A stretch of DNA of 64,000 bases from a bacterium (GTDB lineage Bacteria; Patescibacteriota; Patescibacteriia; UBA9934), in assembly GCA_020053275.1 (NCBI GenBank), contig JAGVNL010000026.1, positions 6,416 to 70,415 of the forward strand, given 5' to 3'. The notes beneath the pieces were generated by a model that had not been told where the DNA came from, ran no database searches, and saw nothing but the letters and a program-made list of their open reading frames with translations. Below, in pieces: positions 3,996 to 62,147 of the stretch. Every line of letters starts with the position of its first letter. Position 1 is the first letter of the stretch. The position numbers and the translations under genes were made by a program.

Positions 3996-6647
3996 ATGAT
4001 GCCAAATAATTTTACCAGCAAGAGCAACCAAGCCATGCAGGCTGCTCAAATGATCGCTGCCGATAACGGCCAGCACGGTATTGAGCCAATTCATTTGCTC
4101 GCTTCTCTCCTCGCCCAAGATGATGGCATGGTCATGACTTTACTACAAAAACTCGGATCACCCATTCAAGCTATCCAAAACGATATTGTTCGCATGCTGG
4201 AAACAATCCCCCGTCATGCCAGCGTGGAGCAGCCAATCCCAGGTCAAATCTTTTTGACGCCGCCTCTCGCTCATGTTTTAGAAAATGCCATTGCTCTAGC
4301 CAAACAATTTGGTGATGAATATATTTCGACTGAACATCTTCTCCTTGCTCTACTCACAGAAAAGATGACCGGCCAACTCCTAGTCAATCACGGCCTAACC
4401 GCGGAAGATATAGTTAAAACTCTAAAAGAACTTCGCGGCGATAATAAAATTACCAGCCAAGATCCAGAAAAGAAGACACAGGCCATAGAACGCTTCAGCA
4501 TCAACCTAACAGAACTCGCCCGTCGTGGTAAACTCGATCCAGTGATTGGACGAGACGAAGAAATTCGCCGCGTCATGCAAGTGCTTTCTCGCCGTACAAA
4601 AAATAATCCAGTATTAATCGGCGAAGCTGGTGTTGGTAAAACCGCCATCATTGAAGGGCTAGCACAACGCATTATTGCGGGTGATGTACCAGAGTCGCTT
4701 AAAGAAAAAGAAATCGTTTCGCTTGACTTAGGCGCCATGGTAGCCGGTACTAAGTTTAGAGGTGAGTTTGAGGAACGACTCAAAGCTGTTGTTAATGAAA
4801 TCAACGCCAGCACTGGTAAAATAATTCTCTTCATCGACGAGCTGCATATGTTGGTTGGTGCTGGTCATGGTGAAGATGCGCCAATGGACGCCAGCAATCT
4901 ACTCAAACCAGCGCTTGCCCGCGGAGAAATTCGCGTAGTCGGTGCAACCACCACCAAAGAATATCAAAAACATATCGAAAAGGATCAAGCGCTAGAACGA
5001 CGCTTTCAGCCTATCATGGTGAACGAACCAAGTATTGACGACACCATCGCTATCCTGCGCGGCATCAAAGAGCGCTACGAAATTCATCACGGCGTGCGTA
5101 TTTCCGACAACGCTATTATTGCTGCTGCCGAGCTCTCTACCCGCTACATTACGGATCGCCAGCTACCAGACAAAGCAGTAGATTTGATTGACGAAGCTGC
5201 CTCCGCCCTCCGTTTGCAAATCGACTCCATGCCAGAAGAACTAGACAGACTAAAACGCGACGAAATGCGTTTACAAATAGAACGCCAAGCATTATTAAAA
5301 GAAGAAGATAAAGAATCAAAAAAGCGTCTCAAAGAAATTGAAAGGCAAATTGCCGATCTCAAAGAGCAATCAGGTGCGCTAGAAATTGCTTGGAACTCCG
5401 AGAAACAACTCATCGAGGCAATTCGCGCTGCCAAAAATGAAATGGATCAGTTAATTAACGAAGCTGAGTTTGAGGAACGCCGCGGAAATCTACAACGCGT
5501 AGCAGAAATCCGTTATGGTCAAATCCCCACCAAACGAGAAACACTCAAACAAACAGAAACAAATCTAAAAATCCTCCAGCAACAACGCGGACTATTAAAA
5601 GAAGTCGTCGGTGAAGAAGACATTGCTGCAGTTGTTGGCCGTTGGACGCATATCCCAGTCTCAAAAATGTTGGAAGGTGAACTCACAAAACTTGCCCGCA
5701 TGGAAGAAGCCTTGAGCAAACGAGTAATCGGCCAAGCAGAAGCAATTCACGCCGTCAGCAACGCCCTCCGCCGCTCTCGTGCTGGCATAAGTGAAGAGAA
5801 TCGCCCAATCGGTAGTTTTATCTTCATGGGGCCAACCGGCGTCGGCAAAACCGAGCTAGCCAAAGCATTGGCGGAGTTCATGTTTAACGACGAAAAGGCC
5901 CTCGTTCGCTTAGATATGAGCGAGTACATGGAGCGCCACTCTATGAGTAAAATGGTGGGCTCGCCACCAGGCTATGTTGGCTACGACGAAGCTGGCCAAC
6001 TAACAGAAAAAATTCGTAAGCACCCCTACTCCGTCGTCCTCTTTGACGAAATTGAAAAAGCTCATCCAGATGTCTTCAACTTACTCCTGCAAATTTTAGA
6101 CGACGGTAACATCACCGACGCCAAAGGCCGTAAAGTAAACTTCAAAAACACGGTTATCATCATGACGAGCAACATTGGTTCAGACGCAATCCTAACCAAC
6201 CAGCAGCAATCAAGCCTCGGTTTTCATGACGGTACAGTCACCGCCGACGATGCCACAAAAAATAAAGTTATCGAGTTACTAAAAGAACACTTCCGCCCAG
6301 AGTTCCTAAACCGTATAGACGAAACTATCGTCTTCCATGCTCTCAGCAAAGAACAAATCGCTGAGGTTGTCGAGCTCCAACTGGCACTCGTCAGTCAACG
6401 CCTAATTACCGAACGCGGAATTGGCCTCAAAGTCACCGAGAAGGCAAAAAAGTTGCTCGCTCTTCGTGGCTACGATCCACAGTACGGTGCTCGCCCCCTC
6501 AAACGCGTCATCCAATCCATGATTCTTGACCCACTCGCCATGAAAATAATCACGGGCGATATAAGTGACAGCTCATCCCTCACCATCGACGCCAACAAAC
6601 AGGAAGAAATAGAGATTCGTAATAAACAACGGGTTGGTAGTTTGTAG
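3996..6647 (+). CDS. clpB: ATP-dependent chaperone ClpB (AAA+ disaggregase)
   Basis: 883 aa. Clp N-domain, two AAA+ modules (Walker A '[10 protein letters not shown]' and '[12 protein letters not shown]') and a long coiled-coil M-domain between them. Confidence 0.93.
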
Positions 6648-6661
6648 TTAGTAGTTGGTAG
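6633..6661 (+). repeat. 'gtag' repeat block (ggtag-tttgtag-ttagtag-ttggtag) overlapping the last codons of clpB
   Basis: Tandem heptamer-like units (t/a)(t/a)(g/t)GTAG. Related blocks at 52627-52657, 53724-53747 and 56859-56882. Confidence 0.5.
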
Positions 6662-6671
6662 AATAAAGAAG

Positions 6672-6702
6672 AGCCCGGCCTGAGCCGAGCTTTTCATTTT
6701 TT
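6672..6702. terminator. rho-independent terminator between the convergent clpB and ppa genes, probably bidirectional
   Basis: Hairpin agcccggcc-tga-gccgagct followed by tttcatttttt; the complement carries a T-rich tail on the other strand. Confidence 0.55.
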
Positions 6703-6722
6703 AAACTACTTTCTACCAACTA

Positions 6723-7229
6723 TTATCTTTTATAATTCTCCATCGCAGCTACGATAATTTCTTTAGCAGCAGCGGCGTCGTGCCACTCCTCGATCTTCGT
6801 CATCTTTTTCTCCAATATCTTATAGCTCTCAAAGAAAAATGAAATCTCGTCCTTCAAGTGCTGCGTAACATCAGCTAAATCGGTAATATGCTTGAAGCGC
6901 ACATCATCTTTGGCCACTGCTAAAATCTTCTCGTCCTGCCCTTTATCATCGCTCATCACCAACACGCCAATCGGCCGAACATCAACGGCTACTCCAGGAA
7001 AAAGTGGATTGCTCACCATCACCAAAACATCTAGTGGATCGCCATCACCACCCAGCGTTTCTGGAAAAAATCCATAATCGCAAGGGTAAAACATTGGTGA
7101 GAACAAAACTCGATCCAGCTTGATTACGCCCTGTTCGTGATCAAACTCATACTTGTTCTGACTTCCACGAGGCACTTCTATGATTGCCTGACAAATGTCT
7201 GGTGCTTTGCTGCCGATTGTAAGTTGCAT
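6723..7229 (-). CDS. ppa: inorganic pyrophosphatase (family I)
   Basis: Family I PPase motifs 'DGDPLDVLV' and 'EIPRGS'. Start moved to the internal ATG at 7229 (168 aa) because the 203-aa ORF-track start at 7334 would overlap the divergent gene at 7318; the start choice is uncertain. Confidence 0.85.
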   Translation of the reverse strand: MQLTIGSKAPDICQAIIEVPRGSQNKYEFDHEQGVIKLDRVLFSPMFYPCDYGFFPETLGGDGDPLDVLVMVSNPLFPGVAVDVRPIGVLVMSDDKGQDEKILAVAKDDVRFKHITDLADVTQHLKDEISFFFESYKILEKKMTKIEEWHDAAAAKEIIVAAMENYKR

Positions 7230-27206: not shown

Positions 27207-27235
27207 ACTATAGCAAATCTTCGCTAAGTATGCAA
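27207..27235 (-). promoter_or_regulatory. candidate promoter P2 of infA-rpmJ-rpsM (TTGCAT-N17-TATAGT), giving a near-leaderless transcript
   Basis: On the minus strand, TTGCAT-N17-TATAGT ends 11 nt before the infA ATG. Confidence 0.4.
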
Positions 27236-27263
27236 GAAAAGCCTGGTTTCTTGAGCTGGCGAT

Positions 27264-27292
27264 ATGGTAATGCATGCAAGATTTACTGTCAA
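27264..27292 (-). promoter_or_regulatory. candidate promoter P1 upstream of infA (TTGACA-N17-TACCAT)
   Basis: Consensus -35 TTGACA, 17-nt spacer and TACCAT -10 on the minus strand, about 70 nt upstream of infA. Confidence 0.4.
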
Positions 27293-27304
27293 TTATTTGA
27301 TGTA

Positions 27305-27874
27305 TTATTTCTTCTCACTATTCCCAAACATCTTATTGAACCAACCCTTCACATTCTCAACTAATCCTTTTGCTGGCTTTTTCTCGGTAGAGCTGTAAGT
27401 CCTGTCCCACCCGCTTCTCCCTTCTGTTAGTACCGCTGTTTTTACGCCACCGAGCTCTGGAGGCAAGCCTGGCCGAGATGGCACCCCCTTAACAGCCGCC
27501 GTCCTGACACCCTTCAATTCTGGCGGTAAAGGCGCTGCATCGACCACAGGCTCTCCTTCGCCTCCCTCCACCACCAAATTACCCTTTTTATCCAAAACCA
27601 AATACTCGGTATCCGCCTCAGGTCGAGCCTTCATCCCCTTGCCTGCCTCTAGTTTAGCTCGAATCTCACCCACACGCTTGTCTGCAAAAGTGGTATCAAC
27701 CGCCTTCCAATCTTCAAGTTGTGCCTTGCCACTTGCAGCCTCAACTAATCTACCTCGCATAGCGGCATCCTCCTTAGCGTTTTGCCTCCTTGCCTGCTGT
27801 TCAGGCGACATCCGAATATAAGTTTCAGGCCTTTTATCACCTCCTCGCTCCCCGCCAGATGATCGTTCTACCAT
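27305..27874 (-). CDS. hypothetical Lys/Glu/Gly-rich protein with internal 'LPPELxGV(K/R)TA' repeats
   Basis: 189 aa, moderately GC-rich, low complexity, no recognisable domain. Internal duplication PLPPELKGVRTAAV / GLPPELGGVKTAVL. Confidence 0.45.
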   Translation of the reverse strand: MVERSSGGERGGDKRPETYIRMSPEQQARRQNAKEDAAMRGRLVEAASGKAQLEDWKAVDTTFADKRVGEIRAKLEAGKGMKARPEADTEYLVLDKKGNLVVEGGEGEPVVDAAPLPPELKGVRTAAVKGVPSRPGLPPELGGVKTAVLTEGRSGWDRTYSSTEKKPAKGLVENVKGWFNKMFGNSEKK

Positions 27875-27911
27875 AAAATTGATTCAATTTTTAATCTCTT
27901 AAAGTATACCA

Positions 27912-29899: not shown

Positions 29900-30358
29900 T
29901 CACGAACGGAGCGAGAACGGCCGCCTACCACTACCCCGGCTAGAGTTTCTGCCTAGGCCGAGCCGGCGAATCGGCGCTGGCCGTGGCACAGCTGGTTCAC
30001 CTCCCAACTCCTCGTCGAACAGGCAGGCTTGAGCTTCAACCTCAACTAAAGGTAGCAAACCGACTGGCCGCATCCGACAATCTGCCAAGAAGTGTATTGG
30101 CTCGTCAGGAAGCGTCGGCAAAATATGTACTGGACACTCCTCATGTATTACCTCCTCCCCTGTATCGTCATCGACCACTACTAGGACAGCAACCGCAGGT
30201 GCCTCCGTCACCGGATCGCTTGCGATTATGGGTAGAGGACCGATCTGTATTCCAGCAGGAACTCGATCCTTCCGCCGCACACGGTACGACTCTAATCCAA
30301 ACGCCAACCATAGCGCAGCCGTCACCAAGCAGCAACAGCCGCCGAGCAATTGTTGCAT
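29900..30358 (-). CDS. small secreted protein or lipoprotein, unknown function, in a high-GC islet
   Basis: 152 aa. GGAGG Shine-Dalgarno 4-5 nt before the ATG, signal peptide 'MQQLLGGCCCLVTAALWLAFG', own terminator. Codon usage is GC3-rich, unlike its neighbours. The overlapping plus-strand ORF 29983-30381 was rejected. Confidence 0.4.
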   Translation of the reverse strand: MQQLLGGCCCLVTAALWLAFGLESYRVRRKDRVPAGIQIGPLPIIASDPVTEAPAVAVLVVVDDDTGEEVIHEECPVHILPTLPDEPIHFLADCRMRPVGLLPLVEVEAQACLFDEELGGEPAVPRPAPIRRLGLGRNSSRGSGRRPFSLRS

Positions 30359-34239: not shown

Positions 34240-34956
34240 TCACTTCTTTACTTTATCGTAAGCGTTACCATACGACGGCCGCTTAATTGAGCCGAATAAC
34301 ATAATATAAGGCTCAGCCAAACCGTTGACGAGGAGAAAACGCAGTCTGCCAATCTTCTCTTGCCGACGCATCGTAATGCCGACTTTGACGCTGTTCAGTA
34401 CGCCGAATTTATAACCAGCGTCTCTTACCAGCAAGCCATAATCATGATCTTCAGCAAATGTTACTGCTGGATCAAAGCCACCAATCGCGTTGTGCACCTT
34501 GCGCCAGACCATCATCATCGTGCCAATCGGATGCGGGTGCCTACTTCCCCACAACCGTACATAACGGTTATAAAATTTAAACGATAATCTATCAAGCCTC
34601 GTGCCGCCCTTTACCGCTACATCACAAGTTACCAAATCAAATTTTCGTTCCTCAAACTCAGCCACCGCCTTCGCCAACCAATCATTGCCCTCAATAATCG
34701 CATCGGCGTCCAAAAATAATACAATCTCTGCCGTCGACGCCTTAACGCCAGCGTTCCTACCAACTGCCGCAATCCCACCGTGCACCACCGTCACGCCCAC
34801 AAAACTCCTGGCAACCTCCCTCGTACCATCCGTACTCCCAGCGTCCGCCACAATAATCTCATCTGGTACCCTCGTCTGCCGCAAAAGCGCCGTCAGCAAC
34901 ACCGGCAAATACTTCGCTTCATTCTTCGCTGGAATCACCACGGCAAGACGCATCAT
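34240..34956 (-). CDS. family 2 glycosyltransferase
   Basis: 'LAVVIPAKNEAKYLPVLLTALLRQTRVPDEIIVADAGSTDGT'. Start set at the Met13 ATG. Confidence 0.75.
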   Translation of the reverse strand: MMRLAVVIPAKNEAKYLPVLLTALLRQTRVPDEIIVADAGSTDGTREVARSFVGVTVVHGGIAAVGRNAGVKASTAEIVLFLDADAIIEGNDWLAKAVAEFEERKFDLVTCDVAVKGGTRLDRLSFKFYNRYVRLWGSRHPHPIGTMMMVWRKVHNAIGGFDPAVTFAEDHDYGLLVRDAGYKFGVLNSVKVGITMRRQEKIGRLRFLLVNGLAEPYIMLFGSIKRPSYGNAYDKVKK

Positions 34957-35068
34957 AATATAAGTATTGTAACATATATCGCTGCCAGGCATATGCTAGG
35001 CAGCAGACTGATATTTTTTTGACATCTCAGGCCTATCATGCCAACATTCAGCGACCCAGGAGCCCATC

Positions 35069-35641
35069 ATGACCATCCCCCTTCTCACCTTCCTCGCCCT
35101 CTTCACACCAACCGCCGCGGCTGGAGTGTCCGCCCAACTCAACATCAAAGTTGCAGGTAGCGCCAAACTCACGGAGAAGATTGACCTCGGCGTGTTCGCC
35201 AACGCCATGCTACTACCCGGTACCACCGCCTACTACTGCACCTACACTGGCCCAGGATTCCAGCTCACCCCGTGGTGGTGGGCAAGCCCCCGTGGTGGCG
35301 TCATCCTCAACTGGCCGGCCACCGGCCAAGCATCGCCCATCGCCTCGCTCTGGAACTACTTCACGCTCCACGGCGGCGACCTCTCGCTCTTCACGGAAAC
35401 CGAGGTATACCCGTTGCCAGGCGGCGGCGTTGACTACTTTGGCTTCTACCAGGCCGACTACAACTTCACGGCGCTGAGCCTTGGACTCATGGCGGAACAG
35501 GTGAACACGAGCATCACGGCTGGGCCAATAGTGTCTTACTCCTTCAACAAGAACCTGAGCGCTGGCGTGGAGTACCACCTCAACCCCCTCGACCTCACCG
35601 CCCAGACCATCCGCGGCAACCTGTCCCTCAAGTTCAACTGA
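35069..35641 (+). CDS. secreted beta-strand-rich protein of unknown function (high-GC islet)
   Basis: AGGAG Shine-Dalgarno 7 nt upstream. Signal peptide 'MTIPLLTFLALFTPTAAAG'. Alternating hydrophobic beta pattern, Trp/Tyr/Gly-rich, ends ...LSLKFN. About 62% GC with a G/C third-position bias. Confidence 0.55.
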   Translation: MTIPLLTFLALFTPTAAAGVSAQLNIKVAGSAKLTEKIDLGVFANAMLLPGTTAYYCTYTGPGFQLTPWWWASPRGGVILNWPATGQASPIASLWNYFTLHGGDLSLFTETEVYPLPGGGVDYFGFYQADYNFTALSLGLMAEQVNTSITAGPIVSYSFNKNLSAGVEYHLNPLDLTAQTIRGNLSLKFN

Positions 35642-35666
35642 CACCACGGTCAGTTTCCCTCTCCTA

Positions 35667-35709
35667 CGCCGCCCCAGAAGCCCTCGTGCTTCACGGGCGG
35701 CTTCTTAAT
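35667..35709 (+). terminator. rho-independent terminator after the beta-rich secreted protein gene
   Basis: gccgccc-[gaagc-cctcgt-gcttc]-gggcggc followed by ttcttaatt. Confidence 0.5.
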
Positions 35710-35737
35710 TACCAAAAATAAAGTATACTTGCAATAT

Positions 35738-36046
35738 ATGATAAATCCAAAAGAACAATTCCCAGCACTTCACGATTTCCTAAGTGCCTACTATCACGAA
35801 GACTGGAATGTGAACGCACAAACAGCAAATAATGTTATAATTCATTTTCTTTCCAACGCCAGTGCATCCGAAATTCCAACTCAAATCGCTGAAGAAATTG
35901 ATGAACTGCTCACAGCTAAAATTAATGATTCGGAACTAAACAACCTAATCTTCGATCATCTTGGTTGTTATTATAGCCCCGAAGCAGATAATCTAACCGT
36001 CCGAGACTGGCTCGCATCAATCGCGAAACAAATGCGTAATCATTAA
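35738..36046 (+). CDS. CdiI-like polymorphic-toxin immunity protein, candidate orphan immunity gene
   Basis: AT-rich (about 36% GC) gene inside a GC-rich islet. 'FPALHDFLSAYYHEDWNVN...ELNNLIFDHLGCYYSPEAD...RDWLASI' matches, from memory, the pattern of CDI-system immunity families (F/YxxAYFHQDW...LGxYY...W). TATACT sits 8 nt before the ATG. The ORF-track start is a TTG three codons earlier. Confidence 0.4.
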   Translation: MINPKEQFPALHDFLSAYYHEDWNVNAQTANNVIIHFLSNASASEIPTQIAEEIDELLTAKINDSELNNLIFDHLGCYYSPEADNLTVRDWLASIAKQMRNH

Positions 36047-36095
36047 AACAAAAGCGGACGCCCGACCCGAGAGTCGTGCGTCCAGTTGTTACCGC
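36046..36095. terminator. bidirectional rho-independent terminator between the CdiI-like gene and the convergent small ORF
   Basis: ggacgc-ccgacccgagagtcgt-gcgtcc. On the minus strand it is followed by gcttttgtttt. Confidence 0.5.
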
Positions 36096-36110
36096 CGTTG
36101 TTCTTGGCAG

Positions 36111-36377
36111 CTAGGCATGTCCCAACATCCGTACTCCATCCTCGCACCGCTGCTTCTCCGCCTCGAGATACCCGGACACATCGTAGGTCACAGGCACAGC
36201 ACCAAGCAGCTTGACGCGCTTCTCCCAGGCCGCCTTGATGATGTCATGGTCAGCCGGGATGGCAGTTCTCCGGTAGACGATGAGGTTGGCCAGGCAGGCC
36301 ATGTCGATCTCATCTGCCTCCTTGATCGCCTCGACGATCGACTTGTGGAAAGGCACCGGCTTCTTGTTCTCGTCCAT
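36111..36377 (-). CDS. small hypothetical protein (88 aa), GC-rich
   Basis: GGGAG Shine-Dalgarno 4 nt before the ATG, own terminator, no recognisable motif. The overlapping plus-strand ORF 36117-36419 was rejected. Confidence 0.45.
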   Translation of the reverse strand: MDENKKPVPFHKSIVEAIKEADEIDMACLANLIVYRRTAIPADHDIIKAAWEKRVKLLGAVPVTYDVSGYLEAEKQRCEDGVRMLGHA

Positions 36378-36443
36378 GACTCACTCCCTGATTGCAGGTT
36401 ACTTGCTCGGCCACCATAGCCTAAAGCAGGCTAAGACTAACAA

Positions 36444-36470
36444 ACAAAAAAGGCTCGGTCAACCCGAGTC
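36444..36470 (-). terminator. rho-independent terminator immediately after tRNA-Arg
   Basis: On the minus strand: ctcgg-gttga-ccgag followed by cctttttt. Confidence 0.5.
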
Positions 36471-36475
36471 TCTCT

Positions 36476-36552
36476 TGGTGTATCTGGCGGGATTCGAACC
36501 CACGACCTTCTCCTTCGGAGGGAGACACTCTATCCAGCTAAGCTACAGATAC
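36476..36552 (-). tRNA. tRNA-Arg (anticodon CCG), CCA encoded
   Basis: Cloverleaf GTATCTG...TTCGAATCC...CAGATAC-A-CCA. Anticodon loop CUCCGAA, read as CCG. Confidence 0.85.
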
Positions 36553-36557
36553 ATAAA

Positions 36558-36995
36558 CTACTGGGCCTTCGTTAAGACATACATCGCGATTCCACTGGCT
36601 ACCGAGACATTCAGCGACTGCTTCTTGCCCATGGGGATAACTACCAATCCGTCGAGTAATCGCCGAGTTTCAACATCAATTCCCGCCACTTCGTTGCCTA
36701 ACACCAGCGCAATTTTTCTCACTCCAATCACCCCAATATCCTTTGCCTCATCCCCCGTTTCCAAACCGAGCACAGTGTAACCCGCCGTCCGGCACTCGTC
36801 GATAGCTTGGCTAATCTCAGCCTTAACCCAGTCAACCAAAAGCTCGGCACCCAAAGCGACCTTAGCAATCTCCTTGCGTGGCGGCGTCTCCGTAAACCCC
36901 GTCAAATATAGCTTTTCTATGTTAAAAGCAGCCGCATTACGGAATATACTACCAACATTGTGCAGGCTGCGAATGTCGTGGACGATAATGATCAT
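36558..36995 (-). CDS. SpoU/TrmH-family tRNA 2'-O-methyltransferase (TrmL-like)
   Basis: 145 aa SPOUT fold. 'LGNEVAGI' and 'SLNVSVASGIAMY' motifs. Confidence 0.75.
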   Translation of the reverse strand: MIIIVHDIRSLHNVGSIFRNAAAFNIEKLYLTGFTETPPRKEIAKVALGAELLVDWVKAEISQAIDECRTAGYTVLGLETGDEAKDIGVIGVRKIALVLGNEVAGIDVETRRLLDGLVVIPMGKKQSLNVSVASGIAMYVLTKAQ

Positions 36996-47628: not shown

Positions 47629-50178
47629 CTACAGGCCAACCGGAGGCAGGGGGACAACTGGTTGCACTTGTTTAGGCACACCGACGCCAGAACGCAGAGC
47701 AATCTCGCGCTCCACAATCTTCTTGTCGCGACCATAAAGCAAACGAGAAATTTCTTTGAGAGCCTGGCCAACTTTTGGACTGCCTTCTTGTTTATTGTCG
47801 ACGCGAAGTGTAAACGGCTTACCCTGAGCGTTGTCGATGATAATCTTACAATTCCATGTTAACGCCTCATTATTCATCAGGTCGTAAGCAGAAAATGTAG
47901 GCTCAAACACTTTCTCCAGTACCTCGGTATCATCAGGGCCGACACGCGACACAAACATGCTGCCCACATTGCCGAGCACAGCATCACGAATCTCACTCTT
48001 GCCGTCCTTCACCAACTGGCCCATATACTGGTGCGCCATGATCAAGTTAAGACGATACTTACGAGCCTCGGACAAAATAGTAGCAATACTTGGCGTCACG
48101 AAGTTTTGGAATTCGTCGACATAAAGATAAAAATCTTTGCGTTTACTCTCCTCCATATCAGCACGAGCAAAAGCCGCCATCTGCAACTTGGCCACAATAA
48201 TCAAACCAAGCAGCGACGCATTAACTTCGCCAGTTTTACCTTTAGACAAATTGACCAAAAGAATCTTACCCTCGTCCATTATTTCACGGAAGTTGAAGGC
48301 GGATTTACTTTGACCGATAATGTTACGCATCATCTCGTTCTCCACAAACCTACCAACCTTACTCACTAGATATCCCATGGTTTCACTCTTGTGGTAGTCA
48401 CTAGTCTTGGCCTGCTCATCCTCCCAGAAACTACGCACAACAGGGTCCTTAACACGAGCAATCCACTCCTTCTGGAAAGCGTCGTCCGCAATCATGCGTG
48501 GGATTTCTGCAATCGTACCAGGGTAAGTCGGGTCCGCCATCAAGGTAAGCATGAAGTTACGCATGGAGTGCTCAAACATCGGGCCGATCATTTCCGGTGG
48601 GAACAACATATAGAAGATGCTGATCATCTCCTGCACCGCAAAGTCGCGCATGTCCTCACTTGGTGCCTCCAGCATGTTTAAGCCCATTGGTCGTTCGGTA
48701 TCGCTTGGGTTGAAGTAAACAACATCATCGTATCGTTCTTTTGGAATAAGCTCCATTATGCCGTCTGCCAAGTCTCCGTGCGGATCAATAACACCAACAC
48801 CTTTACCAGCAATAATATCTTGAATAACCAAGTTCTTAATAAACTCAGACTTACCAGAACCAGTCTTACCAATAATGTACATGTGGCGACGGCGGTCACC
48901 GTCTTTGATAAATACTGGTTTTGTAGCGCCGCGATAGGTGTTGGTACCCAAACGCAAACCTTCAGTTGGCGTGTTAGTTGGGGCCGGGGCGACACGCGCC
49001 ATCATCCACAAAATATTCGGCGTATCAGTACTTGGCAACGGCAAATGCCACATAGACGCCATTTCTTCGGTATTCAAAATAATTTTCTGATACCTGGCAA
49101 AAGTACGATAAATGAAGTGCTCGATTAAACGGCGCTTGCGGAGCGGCAACACCTTCTGCAAGGAGTTACCATACTCATAAATGTTATATTGACCGAACGC
49201 TTGCAATGCATTGTTTAGGTTCGCCAACGCCATTTGAGCGGATTTCGCCGAAGAAACGATGCGAATATTTACTTCCATTCCGGCCTTAGAAATTTTATTT
49301 CCAACTCCCTCCAACATCTTAGATTCCGTTTGTGACAACTGTTTTTGATCTCTTCGTTCAGACTTTTGTTTCTCAATATCTTCTTTACTCGCAAACCAGC
49401 TACCAACAGTTTTACCCTTTTTCGCTTCTTCAAGCGACATGCCATTCTGCATGTTCCTTATAATCTTAGTACCCAGTTCACGCCAATTATGGTGAGTTGG
49501 GCGAATAATATATTGTACTACCAAACCATCGCCTTCTTCTACCTTAGACAAAGCATTGGTTAATGAATTCAACGGGTCTGAATCATTTTCTTTATAAGTC
49601 TTGAGAGGGAAAATAGACTCTCGTTTCAACTCTAAATAGCCGCCGAGAACAATGCCAGTAGTTGAAAAAATATTATAATCCTCAACCTCCTTCAAGCTGG
49701 CGTCACTATACTGAGCGTGCAACTGCTGCTGCACAAAATCATACATGTTGCGCGGTACATTAATGTAAAAAGAAACGAGCTTGTTATGAGCTACAATTTC
49801 TAATGCAATGGAATCTGTTCTCCCAGCAAACCAAGCATGAATACCAAAACCATGATGTGGTTTTACGCCACCAATAGCCGCAAAAAAAGTTTCCGCAATA
49901 GCAATCGACTCCTTAATAACTTGTGCTGTTTCATTACCCTTAGCTTCTTCTTGGTTGCGGTACCGAGGAATGGTTACTAGTAATGTAATGTTGGTATGCT
50001 TGCCTCCCTGCTGTCTAAACCTGCGATGCATCTTGTAACGCAACAGAAATATACCGCCAATTATTGCCCCAACAATCAGCAAAGCAATTATTAAACGCAA
50101 CCAAATGGACGAGCCACCGGTTGCAACATACTGTGTAGTTGCTACTTCGCCTGCAATGAGAAATAAGCCTGGAAGCAC
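47629..50178 (-). CDS. type IV secretion-type ATPase (VirD4/TraG/TraD coupling-protein-like or VirB4-like) with two N-terminal TM helices
   Basis: 849 aa. Two N-terminal TM helices, Walker A 'IIGKTGSGKSEF' at roughly residue 430, Walker B 'LYVDEFQNF' (a T4CP-like DEFxN). Confidence 0.5.
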   Translation of the reverse strand: MLPGLFLIAGEVATTQYVATGGSSIWLRLIIALLIVGAIIGGIFLLRYKMHRRFRQQGGKHTNITLLVTIPRYRNQEEAKGNETAQVIKESIAIAETFFAAIGGVKPHHGFGIHAWFAGRTDSIALEIVAHNKLVSFYINVPRNMYDFVQQQLHAQYSDASLKEVEDYNIFSTTGIVLGGYLELKRESIFPLKTYKENDSDPLNSLTNALSKVEEGDGLVVQYIIRPTHHNWRELGTKIIRNMQNGMSLEEAKKGKTVGSWFASKEDIEKQKSERRDQKQLSQTESKMLEGVGNKISKAGMEVNIRIVSSAKSAQMALANLNNALQAFGQYNIYEYGNSLQKVLPLRKRRLIEHFIYRTFARYQKIILNTEEMASMWHLPLPSTDTPNILWMMARVAPAPTNTPTEGLRLGTNTYRGATKPVFIKDGDRRRHMYIIGKTGSGKSEFIKNLVIQDIIAGKGVGVIDPHGDLADGIMELIPKERYDDVVYFNPSDTERPMGLNMLEAPSEDMRDFAVQEMISIFYMLFPPEMIGPMFEHSMRNFMLTLMADPTYPGTIAEIPRMIADDAFQKEWIARVKDPVVRSFWEDEQAKTSDYHKSETMGYLVSKVGRFVENEMMRNIIGQSKSAFNFREIMDEGKILLVNLSKGKTGEVNASLLGLIIVAKLQMAAFARADMEESKRKDFYLYVDEFQNFVTPSIATILSEARKYRLNLIMAHQYMGQLVKDGKSEIRDAVLGNVGSMFVSRVGPDDTEVLEKVFEPTFSAYDLMNNEALTWNCKIIIDNAQGKPFTLRVDNKQEGSPKVGQALKEISRLLYGRDKKIVEREIALRSGVGVPKQVQPVVPLPPVGL

Positions 50179-60427: not shown

Positions 60428-60460
60428 ACAAAAATACCTGACATCTGTCAGGTATTTTTT
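60428..60460. terminator. bidirectional rho-independent terminator between the repeat-protein gene and tRNA-Glu
   Basis: Perfect stem aaaaatacctgaca-tct-tgtcaggtattttt. Confidence 0.65.
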
Positions 60461-60534
60461 GGTGACTCTACCGGGAATCGAACCCGGATTAAAGGCTTGA
60501 GAAGCCTCTGTCCTAACCGTTAGACGATAGAGCC
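60460..60534 (-). tRNA. tRNA-Glu (anticodon CUC), CCA encoded
   Basis: GGCTCTA...TTCGATTCC...TAGAGTC-A-CCA. Anticodon loop UUCUCAA. Confidence 0.75.
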
Positions 60535-60658: not shown

Positions 60659-61243
60659 CTACTGGCCATCAGCCTCGACTGTAGCGAAATAGTCGAACAC
60701 CGCCTGGTTGTTGCTGATCTTGGCTACAACCATGACACTATCAATGGCCTGCCAGCCGAGTGCCAAGCCAATCAGGTGATCCGCCAGCTCGTCGACAGGT
60801 GAAGCAAAACCCGAGGTCGAGACGATCCGTTCGCACTCCCCCATACGAACAGCACCCTGGTAGATGTGCTCCATGGAGTTGCGGCTACTCGTGTCCTGGA
60901 TCTCGAAGCTGAGGACACGGTCGTCGTACAAGCTGAGGCTGTACCCCTTCTTGATGCTGTGAAAGCCGTAGCGCAGCGACTGGTCCGCACTGATGTCGCC
61001 GATGGACACCACACAGATCAGCTTCCAGTGCGTGATTGGTTCGATCACCTTCTCCCACAGGGCAACGCAACAACCAGTGTCGGTTGGGTCGCCGCGCAAG
61101 GCGATGGGGATGACGATGTCTGTCACCACCCGGCGAGCAACCGCTGCAAAATGAGCCATGAAGGCTTCTTCTCGAGGAGTTCTTTTGATGTCGTCAATAA
61201 GCAAAGTAGCCTCACAGAGTTGAGTATGCCACAGGGAATCCAT
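60659..61243 (-). CDS. hypothetical protein in a high-GC islet, divergent from 61398-62147
   Basis: 194 aa; about 58-60% GC with GC3-biased codons; no motif. Several overlapping shadow ORFs were ignored. Confidence 0.45.
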   Translation of the reverse strand: MDSLWHTQLCEATLLIDDIKRTPREEAFMAHFAAVARRVVTDIVIPIALRGDPTDTGCCVALWEKVIEPITHWKLICVVSIGDISADQSLRYGFHSIKKGYSLSLYDDRVLSFEIQDTSSRNSMEHIYQGAVRMGECERIVSTSGFASPVDELADHLIGLALGWQAIDSVMVVAKISNNQAVFDYFATVEADGQ

Positions 61244-61397: not shown

Positions 61398-62147
61398 ATG
61401 TCCATCGAACTCGTCAAAACTGAGCCAGCCAACCCAACCTCACAGGACGACAACACGAGCCTGGAACTCCACGGCCTCATGCCTCGCCCGTATATCGACA
61501 TCGTCCTCGAGCACCTAGCACTGCTCGCCGACACTCCCCGTTGCGACTGGCTGGCCGGCAATGTCCCCTTCGGCCAGTTGCCTCCCAACCTGCAGGGTCT
61601 CGCCGAGCTGCTGATCTGCGACGAGCTGGCCTGTCTGATTGGCCTGTTCATCCCCGAGGGCATCCGCGCCACCACCTGCAACAAGATCGTGCGCTACCTC
61701 AAGGCCATCAGCAAGAAGGTCAGCGGGATCGACAACCGTCTGTGCGTTGCCCTCGCCATCACCTGGTTCAACGACTACCGACGAGACAGGCAGAGCCTCA
61801 GTCCACAGATCCTCGACGCCGATCAGCGTGCCATCAACGCCATCACGGCGCTGAACCACGAGCCGCTAGCTCGCTGGTCGTTCAACAGTCGTACCTACAA
61901 GGAGCTCAACTCTGAGGGCAATGTGGCTATCCACGACTTGGTGGAGAACACCGTCGTCTGGCGCATCGACCGTATGGTCAAGCGAGTAGAGATCCCGGCC
62001 AGCCGCCGCCCCGCCACCTGCCATCGCCTGATCAGCGAGCTCAAGCATCTCAACGACTGGCGCGTCAGTAGAGCCTCGAACCGTCAGGTTGTTCTGCACA
62101 ACCAGGTCTGGCTCGCCCGCTACCGTGAAGGGTTGCTGCGGCCATGA
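61398..62147 (+). CDS. hypothetical protein in a high-GC islet
   Basis: 249 aa, GGAG 8 nt upstream, own terminator, strongly GC3-biased codons (ctc, gac, ggc, atc, aag). Confidence 0.5.
   Translation: MSIELVKTEPANPTSQDDNTSLELHGLMPRPYIDIVLEHLALLADTPRCDWLAGNVPFGQLPPNLQGLAELLICDELACLIGLFIPEGIRATTCNKIVRYLKAISKKVSGIDNRLCVALAITWFNDYRRDRQSLSPQILDADQRAINAITALNHEPLARWSFNSRTYKELNSEGNVAIHDLVENTVVWRIDRMVKRVEIPASRRPATCHRLISELKHLNDWRVSRASNRQVVLHNQVWLARYREGLLRP

Follow-up and report, generated by a model that had tools for sequence, protein, structure and literature searches.

Gene Content and Base Composition Between the Glycosyltransferase Gene and tRNA-Arg

The subject of this analysis is a 64,000-nucleotide stretch of DNA from a member of the Patescibacteriota (UBA9934; GenBank assembly GCA_020053275.1, contig JAGVNL010000026.1, positions 6,416 to 70,415), termed "the window" throughout the paper, and in particular one interval in it, where a GC-rich gene for a putative small beta-barrel protein is found next to a gene for a CdiI-like immunity protein. 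The 64-kb window has a GC content of 47.5%, and the GC content at third codon positions (GC3) averaged 0.496 over the 65 called open reading frames (ORFs), with a standard deviation (sd) of 0.095. The interval is bounded on the left by the gene of a GT2 glycosyltransferase (34240-34992, minus strand; Pfam Glycos_transf_2, E 5e-28) and on the right by tRNA-Arg(CCG) (36476-36552, minus strand), which was identified by ARAGORN and by the Rfam tRNA model with 66.7 bits. Given this position and strand of the tRNA gene, the interval lies on its 3' side.

Three ORFs occupy the interval. The first (35069-35641, plus strand), called the barrel gene below, encodes a protein of 190 amino acids (aa) and shows a GC content of 0.609 and a GC3 of 0.806 (z +3.3). 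The second (35729-36046, plus strand, with an alternative start at 35738) encodes a 105-aa protein of the CdiI_2 family at a GC content of 0.384 and a GC3 of 0.321. The third (36111-36377, minus strand) encodes 88 aa at a GC content of 0.588 and a GC3 of 0.798. Both outer ORFs are GC3 outliers by more than 3 sd, with the low-GC CdiI_2 gene sitting between them. Coordinates and composition agreed with a preliminary description of the window made from the sequence alone, which had listed two ORFs of about 60% GC with a strong bias toward G and C at third codon positions and a CdiI-like gene of about 36% GC. The same description had interpreted the three genes as a high-GC island, inserted beside the tRNA gene, possibly from a high-GC donor. 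This interpretation turned out to be largely wrong. The interval consists of two different things side by side and not of one inserted island, and the inserted piece is the low-GC CdiI gene, the opposite of what had been proposed. An origin of the GC-rich stretches as structured RNAs was also considered and rejected, as an Rfam scan of the window detected just three tRNAs.

The Barrel Gene Is Conserved at the Same Site in Related Genomes

Among 5.8 billion proteins only three close homologues of the 190-aa protein were found, and a scan of genomes for related loci yielded only the two close species. One related lineage comprises L001, L002, and L008 (NCBI label 'Candidatus Uhrbacteria' UBA11707), the other L004, L005, and L009. 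The contig of L009 (CAYHFQ010000002.1), which carries an L004-type locus, is labelled 'uncultured Gammaproteobacteria bacterium'; its gene content and synteny match a 'Candidatus Uhrbacteria' metagenome-assembled genome, and the label is probably a taxonomic mislabel. L001 and L004 show the gene order AlaS and, further on, MurJ, TSP3 protein, PTAC, GT2, barrel gene, slot, tRNA-Arg, SpoU, TrmA, and Era, with the tRNA-Arg gene in the same position as in the window. In these two genomes the barrel protein is 78-79% identical to that of the window, the GT2 glycosyltransferase 87-89%, and the SpoU-type RNA methyltransferase at the right flank (36558-36995, minus strand; Pfam SpoU_methylase, E 3.8e-30) 86-87%. 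The GC3 of the barrel gene is 0.86 in L001 and 0.82-0.83 in L004, with neighboring genes near 0.55. This conserved synteny with similar base composition contradicts the acquisition that had been proposed for the gene.

The expression signals are conserved as well. A TTGACA motif resembling a -35 box is located at 35019-35024 on the plus strand and is followed after 17 nt by the weak -10-like sequence CAACAT. In the three-way DNA alignment of window, L001, and L004 the sequence TTTGACA is unchanged; the motif may serve as promoter element of the barrel gene, although a generic promoter scan did not call it. The Shine-Dalgarno sequence AGGAG (35058-35062, plus strand), 6 nt 5' of the ATG, is the same in all three. 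Downstream, an intrinsic terminator (35668-35709, plus strand) is formed by a nested hairpin (35668-35701) and a T-rich tail; the hairpin, with a dG of -23.3 kcal/mol and z of -5.9, is kept in L001 and L004. Thus TTGACA, AGGAG, ORF, and barrel terminator, together with tRNA-Arg and its own terminator, were all found conserved in the alignment.

Four-fold degenerate sites were kept above random expectation at 20-31% in the barrel gene and at 10-40% in neighboring genes of the three genomes. Because of this low retention, most synonymous sites have been replaced since the lineages split, with a turnover of about 70-80% at the four-fold sites of the barrel gene. A foreign GC3 would have drifted most of the way to 0.5 in the meantime; this happened in none of the lineages, and therefore the high GC3 does not represent a foreign composition in the course of decay. 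Judged by these comparisons the 190-aa barrel gene is a long-resident, conserved, and monocistronic gene. No paralogues of it were found within the window. Recent acquisition was rejected for the 190-aa and the 88-aa genes alike, since both are of atypical composition but present at the same site in relatives.

The proteins of the locus differ in their degree of conservation. Between L001 and L004 five core proteins (AlaS, MurJ, SpoU, TrmA, and Era) are 93-99% identical, while identity amounts to 78% for the barrel protein, 74% for the TSP3-repeat surface protein, and 56% for a 152-aa protein. Either the exported and surface proteins encoded here diverge at a much higher rate than the core, or their genes undergo exchange.

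A Variable Slot With an Inserted Gene for a CdiI-Like Protein

DNA homology between window, L001, and L004 is lost only between two conserved terminators, that of the barrel gene and that of tRNA-Arg (36444-36468, minus strand; dG -16.4 kcal/mol, z -4.0), the latter being kept in all three genomes as the right edge of the slot. The contents of the enclosed 0.73 kb (35710-36440) differ in the three genomes: the 88-aa gene plus the CdiI gene in the window, just a 140-aa gene in L004, and a gene for an unrelated 195-aa membrane protein of low GC content (0.38) in L001. The 88-aa protein is 36% identical (E 7e-15) to the 140-aa protein of L004, whose gene possesses the same place and orientation and a GC3 of 0.77, so that also for this second GC-rich gene conserved synteny speaks against an acquired origin. 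Because of the homologous gene at the same site, we regard the 88-aa gene as real, resident, and fast-evolving. A Shine-Dalgarno sequence GGGAG (36384-36388, minus strand) was read from the sequence. A profile search of the 5.8e9 proteins found only these two members of the 88-aa/140-aa family, and searches of Pfam, NCBIfam, and PDB gave no match. The gene is clade-specific, and no function is assigned to it.

In L004 the terminator of the barrel gene directly adjoins the hairpin of the 140-aa gene; the homologue of this hairpin in the window is located just behind the stop codon of the CdiI gene. Since the two hairpins are adjacent in L004, the CdiI gene occupies an insertion of about 330 bp (approximately 35724-36054, plus strand), which contains this single gene and has an A-rich repeat at both ends. 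The CdiI gene alone is absent from the relatives L001 and L004. The insertion is flanked by the imperfect A-rich direct repeat of about 10 nt, AAAAATAAAG at 35714-35723 and AAAACAAAAG at 36045-36054, which could reflect microhomology or have arisen as a target duplication when the gene was inserted. The hairpin at 36056-36083 was recognized by the terminator scan as bidirectional (fold of -19.2 kcal/mol on the plus and -20.7 kcal/mol on the minus strand) and has a homologue in L004. It is common to the CdiI gene on the plus and the 88-aa gene on the minus strand, and the assumption that each of the three genes has its own terminator had to be given up.

The earlier assignment of a CdiI-like immunity protein was confirmed by a match to CdiI_2 (PF18593; E 2.6e-20, 73.4 bits versus a cutoff of 26.7) that covers the full length of the profile (1-91 of 91); in addition, residues 8-105 match CdiI of Yersinia kristensenii (PDB 5e3e_A) with an E of 5e-9. 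Identity to the nearest plasmid-borne relatives is only 29-35%; among these is a Janthinobacterium protein annotated as an immunity protein of contact-dependent growth inhibition (CDI). Like Y. kristensenii CdiI (5e3e) and orphan immunity genes, the gene encodes a small helical protein of about 100 aa in a stand-alone cassette. Unlike in CDI systems, cdiA-CT, cdiB, or any other toxin gene is not adjacent; upstream of the CdiI gene the barrel gene with its terminator is found instead of cdiA-CT. As no toxin family was detected in the interval or among the scanned genes of the window, the gene was classified as an orphan immunity gene, and the insertion is best read as a recent orphan immunity cassette. 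By homology, its product would neutralize an RNase-type CDI or polymorphic toxin coming from other cells.

The interval resembles tRNA-linked islets in its location on the 3' side of a tRNA gene and in contents which differ between close relatives. Unlike such islets it is bounded by two transcription terminators, and what has been inserted is one gene of 330 bp with an imperfect A-rich repeat at its two junctions. A search with the 25-nt 3' segment of tRNA-Arg that tolerated 3 mismatches found it just once in the window, and no relevant repeats were detected; an integrase family was found neither in the interval and its flanking genes nor among the scanned window genes. With no integrase and no far-border repeat of the tRNA 3' end, a tRNA-targeted island was rejected, and the integrase or att repeat looked for in continuation of the preliminary description did not turn up. 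Of the small accessory module at the tRNA gene that it had envisaged, the variable slot and the genome-specific CdiI gene remain; the two GC-rich genes are not the acquired part. The GC-rich genes gave no match to PHROG or PADLOC and have no relatives in viral contigs. Only weak matches to PHROGs were found, for the CdiI-like protein (E 6e-5) and a neighboring ORF, both to families of unknown function. An origin from phages or defense systems was rejected on the grounds of the missing PADLOC matches, the weak PHROG matches, and the lack of viral-contig relatives.

The 190-aa Protein Belongs to a Family of Predicted Beta-Barrels

Using a profile search of 1.84 billion representative proteins, 102 members of the barrel family were found, nearly all of 185-215 aa. 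At 50% identity they fall into about 100 clusters, which carry no annotation. For the 190-aa protein itself Pfam and NCBIfam gave no match at E <= 0.1, and PHROG and PADLOC also none. Members with an organism name are all Patescibacteria ('Candidatus Uhrbacteria', 'Candidatus Parcubacteria / Patescibacteria group', and 'Candidatus Parcubacteria'), and one relative is carried on a 1.09-Mb contig. The relatives are thus metagenome proteins without a name plus three named Patescibacteria, none of them actinobacterial, in disagreement with a high-GC donor such as an actinobacterial host.

Structure prediction with AlphaFold2 required a deep alignment. Given four close homologues only, the predicted local distance difference test (pLDDT) score was 29.9; on an alignment of 88 sequences it reached 94.3, with a predicted template modeling (pTM) score of 0.85. 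In the model, a disordered or helical signal segment at the N-terminus precedes a domain built entirely of beta-structure, with 11 strand segments according to DSSP and loops of 2-7 residues. The window protein and 82 of the 88 family members start with a hydrophobic, Sec-type signal, which, like the all-beta model, agrees with the secreted beta-rich protein of the preliminary description. Comparing the model to KdgM with Foldseek, TM-scores of 0.56/0.62 were obtained at weak E-values. The significant structural matches were all integral membrane barrels, with designed transmembrane barrels among them; further matches included intimin, autotransporter translocators, FapF, OpcA, LpxR, OmpT, OMPLA, and Tsx. 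Along the strands a hydrophobic face (V-A-L-I-V-G-A, L-A-V-Y-L) alternates with a polar or charged one, and the nearly invariant residues E143 and R182 belong to the polar face, which is turned toward the lumen. Gly, Tyr, Trp, and Phe are abundant in the sequence. An aromatic residue is found among the last three residues in 62 of the 88 members, and many end with R-[FIV]-x-x-x-L-x-F, like the beta-signal of outer membrane proteins (OMPs); the window protein ends with LSLKFN, Phe being penultimate. Based on the model, the 190-aa protein is predicted to be a Sec-exported, small, short-looped transmembrane beta-barrel of the KdgM/NanC type.

KdgM/NanC proteins (PF06178) are small 12-stranded outer-membrane porins, among them KdgM of Dickeya, NanC of Escherichia coli, and VhGalP of Vibrio. 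Like these, the barrel protein has about 170 mature residues, an N-terminal Sec signal, the size of a monomer, and a stand-alone gene, and in the model it would share the hydrophobic exterior and the polar to charged lumen. Unlike these, it has much shorter loops, 11 DSSP strand segments, and the C-terminal sequence F-N instead of a terminal Phe; there is no detectable sequence similarity and no link to genes of sugar-acid catabolism, and the named members of its family come from a group regarded as monoderm. None of 88 family members matched the KdgM profile. One member matched Pfam OMP_b-brl (E 4e-6), and a profile search of the PDB sequences with the family found no porin at E <= 10 beyond a TonB receptor at chance level. 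As the sequence test failed and the cellular setting differs, the barrel was not assigned to the KdgM/NanC family. Unlike the 12-stranded translocators of autotransporters and of intimin/invasin, and unlike PcoB, it has no passenger or plug and is essentially the barrel alone. The model points to a new, unannotated family of outer-membrane-type barrels, the named members of which are all Patescibacteria.

High GC3 Is a Trait of the Barrel Gene Family

In order to judge the base composition, an expected GC3 was calculated by encoding the same protein with the codon usage of the neighbors at each locus. Loci from six more lineages with 27-52% identity to the window barrel protein were added. Observed versus expected GC3 was 0.81 versus 0.50 in the window, 0.86 versus 0.56 in L001, and 0.82-0.83 versus 0.54 in L004. 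The further loci gave 0.75 versus 0.48 (L007), 0.76 versus 0.38 (L010), 0.86 versus 0.35 (L016), 0.70 versus 0.49 (L018), and 0.87 versus 0.43 (L014). In the 33% GC genome of L012 the values were 0.38 versus 0.29, in the 61% GC genome of L017 0.81 versus 0.79. For five newly recovered loci of low or mid GC content, the z of the barrel GC3 relative to the neighbors was 3.6 to 7.6. The excess ends at the borders of the ORF: in eight mid-GC loci the 150-bp flanks had a GC content of 0.33-0.49 versus 0.57-0.65 for the gene. Across the family it consists chiefly of a gain of C at third positions (C3) and a loss of A and T (A3 and T3). Amino-acid composition was rejected as its cause, as the expected GC3 is only 0.50 for the same residues, and a regional effect was rejected because of the normal GC content of the flanks. 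On the evidence of these sequences, high GC3 is a trait of the gene family and not a mark of foreign origin. The GC3 excess is conserved and confined to the ORF.

The window shows a strong and uniform strand asymmetry, with a GC skew of the plus strand of about -0.2 throughout. At third positions C/(C+T) is about 0.6 and G/(G+A) about 0.28 in plus-strand genes, with reversed values on the minus strand, so that plus-strand genes are C3-rich and minus-strand genes rich in G at third positions (G3). The minus strand holds most genes of the window, the ribosomal-protein operon included; the barrel gene is on the plus, presumably lagging, strand. In both GC-rich ORFs C3 and G3 are each above the background of the same strand.

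Codon adaptation was compared to the ribosomal-protein operon set of the window (seven ribosomal proteins, RpoA, and IF1). The GC3 outlier seen earlier is real, and the codon adaptation index (CAI) of the barrel gene is unremarkable: with 0.684 it lies between the window mean of 0.623 and the reference genes (0.71-0.84), and the gene takes rank 9 of the 17 on the plus strand. The genes of the ribosomal-protein operon favor NNC codons. The barrel gene uses GGC, CCC, ACG, and GTG, which the ribosomal-protein genes avoid, and the codon shifts of the two showed a rank correlation of 0.01, a value confounded by the strong strand skew. With this CAI and this skew-confounded correlation, ordinary translational codon adaptation was rejected as cause of the high GC3. 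As the excess does not extend beyond the ORF and has survived the turnover of synonymous sites, we infer selection on the coding sequence or its mRNA, and we conclude that some factor which acts on the barrel coding sequence keeps its GC3 up. Such selection would keep GC3 high and might be tied to very high expression; expression-linked or mRNA-level selection is our leading guess, and we give less weight to a mobile gene pool with a GC content near 60% and to biased gene conversion.

Two of the added loci also have tRNA genes near the barrel gene. In L010, an unrelated lineage of 44% GC, the barrel gene (4980-5546, plus strand) is convergent with a cluster of six tRNA genes (Gly, Met, Gly, Pro, Phe, and Ala; 5631-6821, minus strand), and in L012 a tRNA-Thr gene is located 1.7 kb downstream. 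The repeated proximity may be due to chance.

Weighing of Alternative Explanations

Taken as a whole, the locus is read here as a resident gene for a porin-like barrel, with a GC3 typical of its family, next to a variable slot which holds a CdiI insertion; we put the probability of this reading at about 0.7. We are aware of the fact that several observations weigh against it. DSSP counts 11 strand segments versus 12 in the best-matching solved barrels, and the barrel is only presumed to be closed. A sequence link of the barrel to KdgM, NanC, or a Pfam or NCBIfam family was not found. The taxonomy of the family is based on three organism names and on the small-genome context. A literature search revealed no membrane or assembly machinery for such a barrel documented in bacteria of the candidate phyla radiation (CPR), nor is one encoded in the window. 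With respect to the cause of the high GC3, the codon choice is not an exaggerated ribosomal-protein pattern, and the gene is located on the lagging, C-rich strand, where a very highly expressed gene would not normally be expected. Finally, the toxin gene expected beside a CDI immunity gene is missing.

Recent joint acquisition of the two GC-rich genes and the immunity gene as a module at tRNA-Arg, from a high-GC donor, would agree with the two GC3 values far above the gene mean, with the location beside the tRNA, with slot contents that vary between relatives, and with the lack of both GC-rich proteins from curated families. We consider it hardly tenable, since both GC-rich genes recur at this position in related genomes at equal GC3, GC3 is undecayed after large replacement of synonymous sites, and barrel homologues of distant lineages show the same excess; moreover, the relatives are unnamed metagenome proteins and three named Patescibacteria, and att repeat, integrase among the scanned window genes, and viral-contig relatives are missing. 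A more serious variant supposes that the barrel gene alone derives from a mobile pool of about 60% GC among Patescibacteria, for example L017-like Parcubacteria, by repeated allelic exchange. The GC content of the gene is 0.57-0.64 in 9 of 10 lineages whatever the genome GC, close to the 61% of L017, the GC excess has the size of one gene, and the conserved flanks could act as recombination arms. The 78% identity of the barrel proteins compared to 93-99% for the core of L001 and L004, and the star-like distances among the three genomes, would also be accounted for. The TSP3 protein (74%) and the 152-aa protein (56%), however, diverge faster too, and fast evolution explains the distances equally well. 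In the 33% GC genome the gene has only 40% GC, so that its composition partly tracks the host; cross-lineage homologues are only 25-50% identical, with no sign of recent sharing, and a plasmid, phage, or transposase context was not found in any of the 10 loci. This variant therefore appears rather improbable.

GC-biased gene conversion at a recombination hot spot beside the slot would fit three different slot contents in three genomes, the rise of both C3 and G3 beyond translationally preferred codons, and the high GC3 of the adjacent 88-aa/140-aa genes. It seems quite unlikely, because the excess breaks off abruptly at the ends of the ORF and does not reach into the intergenic flanks, the cassettes in the slot are of low GC (0.38 for CdiI and for the membrane protein of L001), and the excess accompanies the gene into unrelated contexts without a variable slot. 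With respect to the protein, the similarity to porins might be topological only, the 190-aa protein being a secreted or wall-associated soluble beta-barrel for binding or as a scaffold. Named members from a group with no documented outer membrane, very short loops, 11 instead of 12 DSSP strands, the C-terminal F-N without terminal aromatic residue, and weak Foldseek E-values are in favor of this idea. Nevertheless, every significant structural match is an integral membrane barrel, designed ones included, and nearly every strand has one strongly hydrophobic face (V/L/I/A/F) and one polar or charged face. A hydrophobic core could not fill the lumen of so wide a barrel, and its hydrophobic face would thus be on the outside. 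The richness in Gly, Tyr, Trp, and Phe and the C-terminal motif of many members, similar to the OMP beta-signal, point in the same direction, and we regard a soluble barrel as not very probable.

Further GC-Rich and Variable Loci of the Window

Two other regions had been assigned the same compositional signature. For 60.65-62.2 kb this was corroborated: the divergent ORFs at 60659-61243 (minus strand, 194 aa) and 61398-62147 (plus strand, 249 aa) have GC3 values of 0.70 and 0.81. The pair lies on the 5' side of tRNA-Glu(CTC) (60460-60534, minus strand). Both are singletons in the protein collection without match in Pfam, NCBIfam, PHROG, PADLOC, or viral contigs, and they are related neither to each other nor to the 88-aa/140-aa family. 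Kinship of the four GC3-rich proteins of the window to one another was rejected. The region at 29.8-30.4 kb does not share the signature. Its ORF (29900-30358, minus strand) has a GC content of 0.57 because of first codon positions of 0.69, with a normal GC3 of 0.53. It encodes the 152-aa protein mentioned above, which has a Cys-rich N-terminal membrane segment (GGCCCLV) and is conserved yet fast-evolving, with 30-47% identity in L001 and L004.

A second variable spot in conserved synteny is the gap between the IF1 gene and alaS. L001 (1063-2953) and L004 hold three genes there, of about 281, 112, and 226 aa, and the window (27214-27911) holds a single different ORF of 189 aa (27305-27874). 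A protein of 849 aa encoded at 47629-50178 (minus strand) contains domains of VirD4/TraG/TrwB-type coupling proteins of type IV secretion; type IV secretion systems were described as widespread in CPR bacteria in a 2025 preprint.

Implications for Island Detection and for the Envelope of CPR Bacteria

For the search for genomic islands the locus is a caution: the GC3 spike beside the tRNA is a resident gene, and the real insertion is its inconspicuous low-GC neighbor. The codon composition of the barrel family persists across genomes of 43-50% GC and is weaker at 33%. The effect exceeds the bias of ribosomal-protein genes and differs from it in kind, which makes the family a clean case for studying selection at synonymous sites.

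CPR bacteria were reported to be without outer membrane, TonB(-ExbBD), and PilQ (PMC6744442), and the lack of an outer membrane was described elsewhere, too (preprint 10.1101/2025.01.22.634366; PMC8871954). Among the annotated genes of the ten loci (the 64-kb window and ±10 kb for each relative) no outer-membrane or BamA/Omp85 families were found, and a description of porin-like barrels in CPR bacteria was not found in the literature. A Sec-exported barrel with a hydrophobic exterior would have to sit in a lipid layer outside the cytoplasmic membrane, where it might form a channel for solutes. Either the bacterium has such an outer layer of its own, so far unrecognized, or the layer could be the outer membrane of a host cell to which it attaches. 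Tentatively, and with more doubt than confidence, we suggest that CPR bacteria of the Parcubacteria type widely export a minimal porin, either into such an unrecognized layer or as a nutrient tap into the host, and that the high GC3 marks strong selection on it. If the barrel spans a lipid layer, either the model of the CPR envelope needs revision, or a candidate for the long-sought device by which epibiotic CPR cells tap a host has been found; both ideas are directly testable with one small protein.

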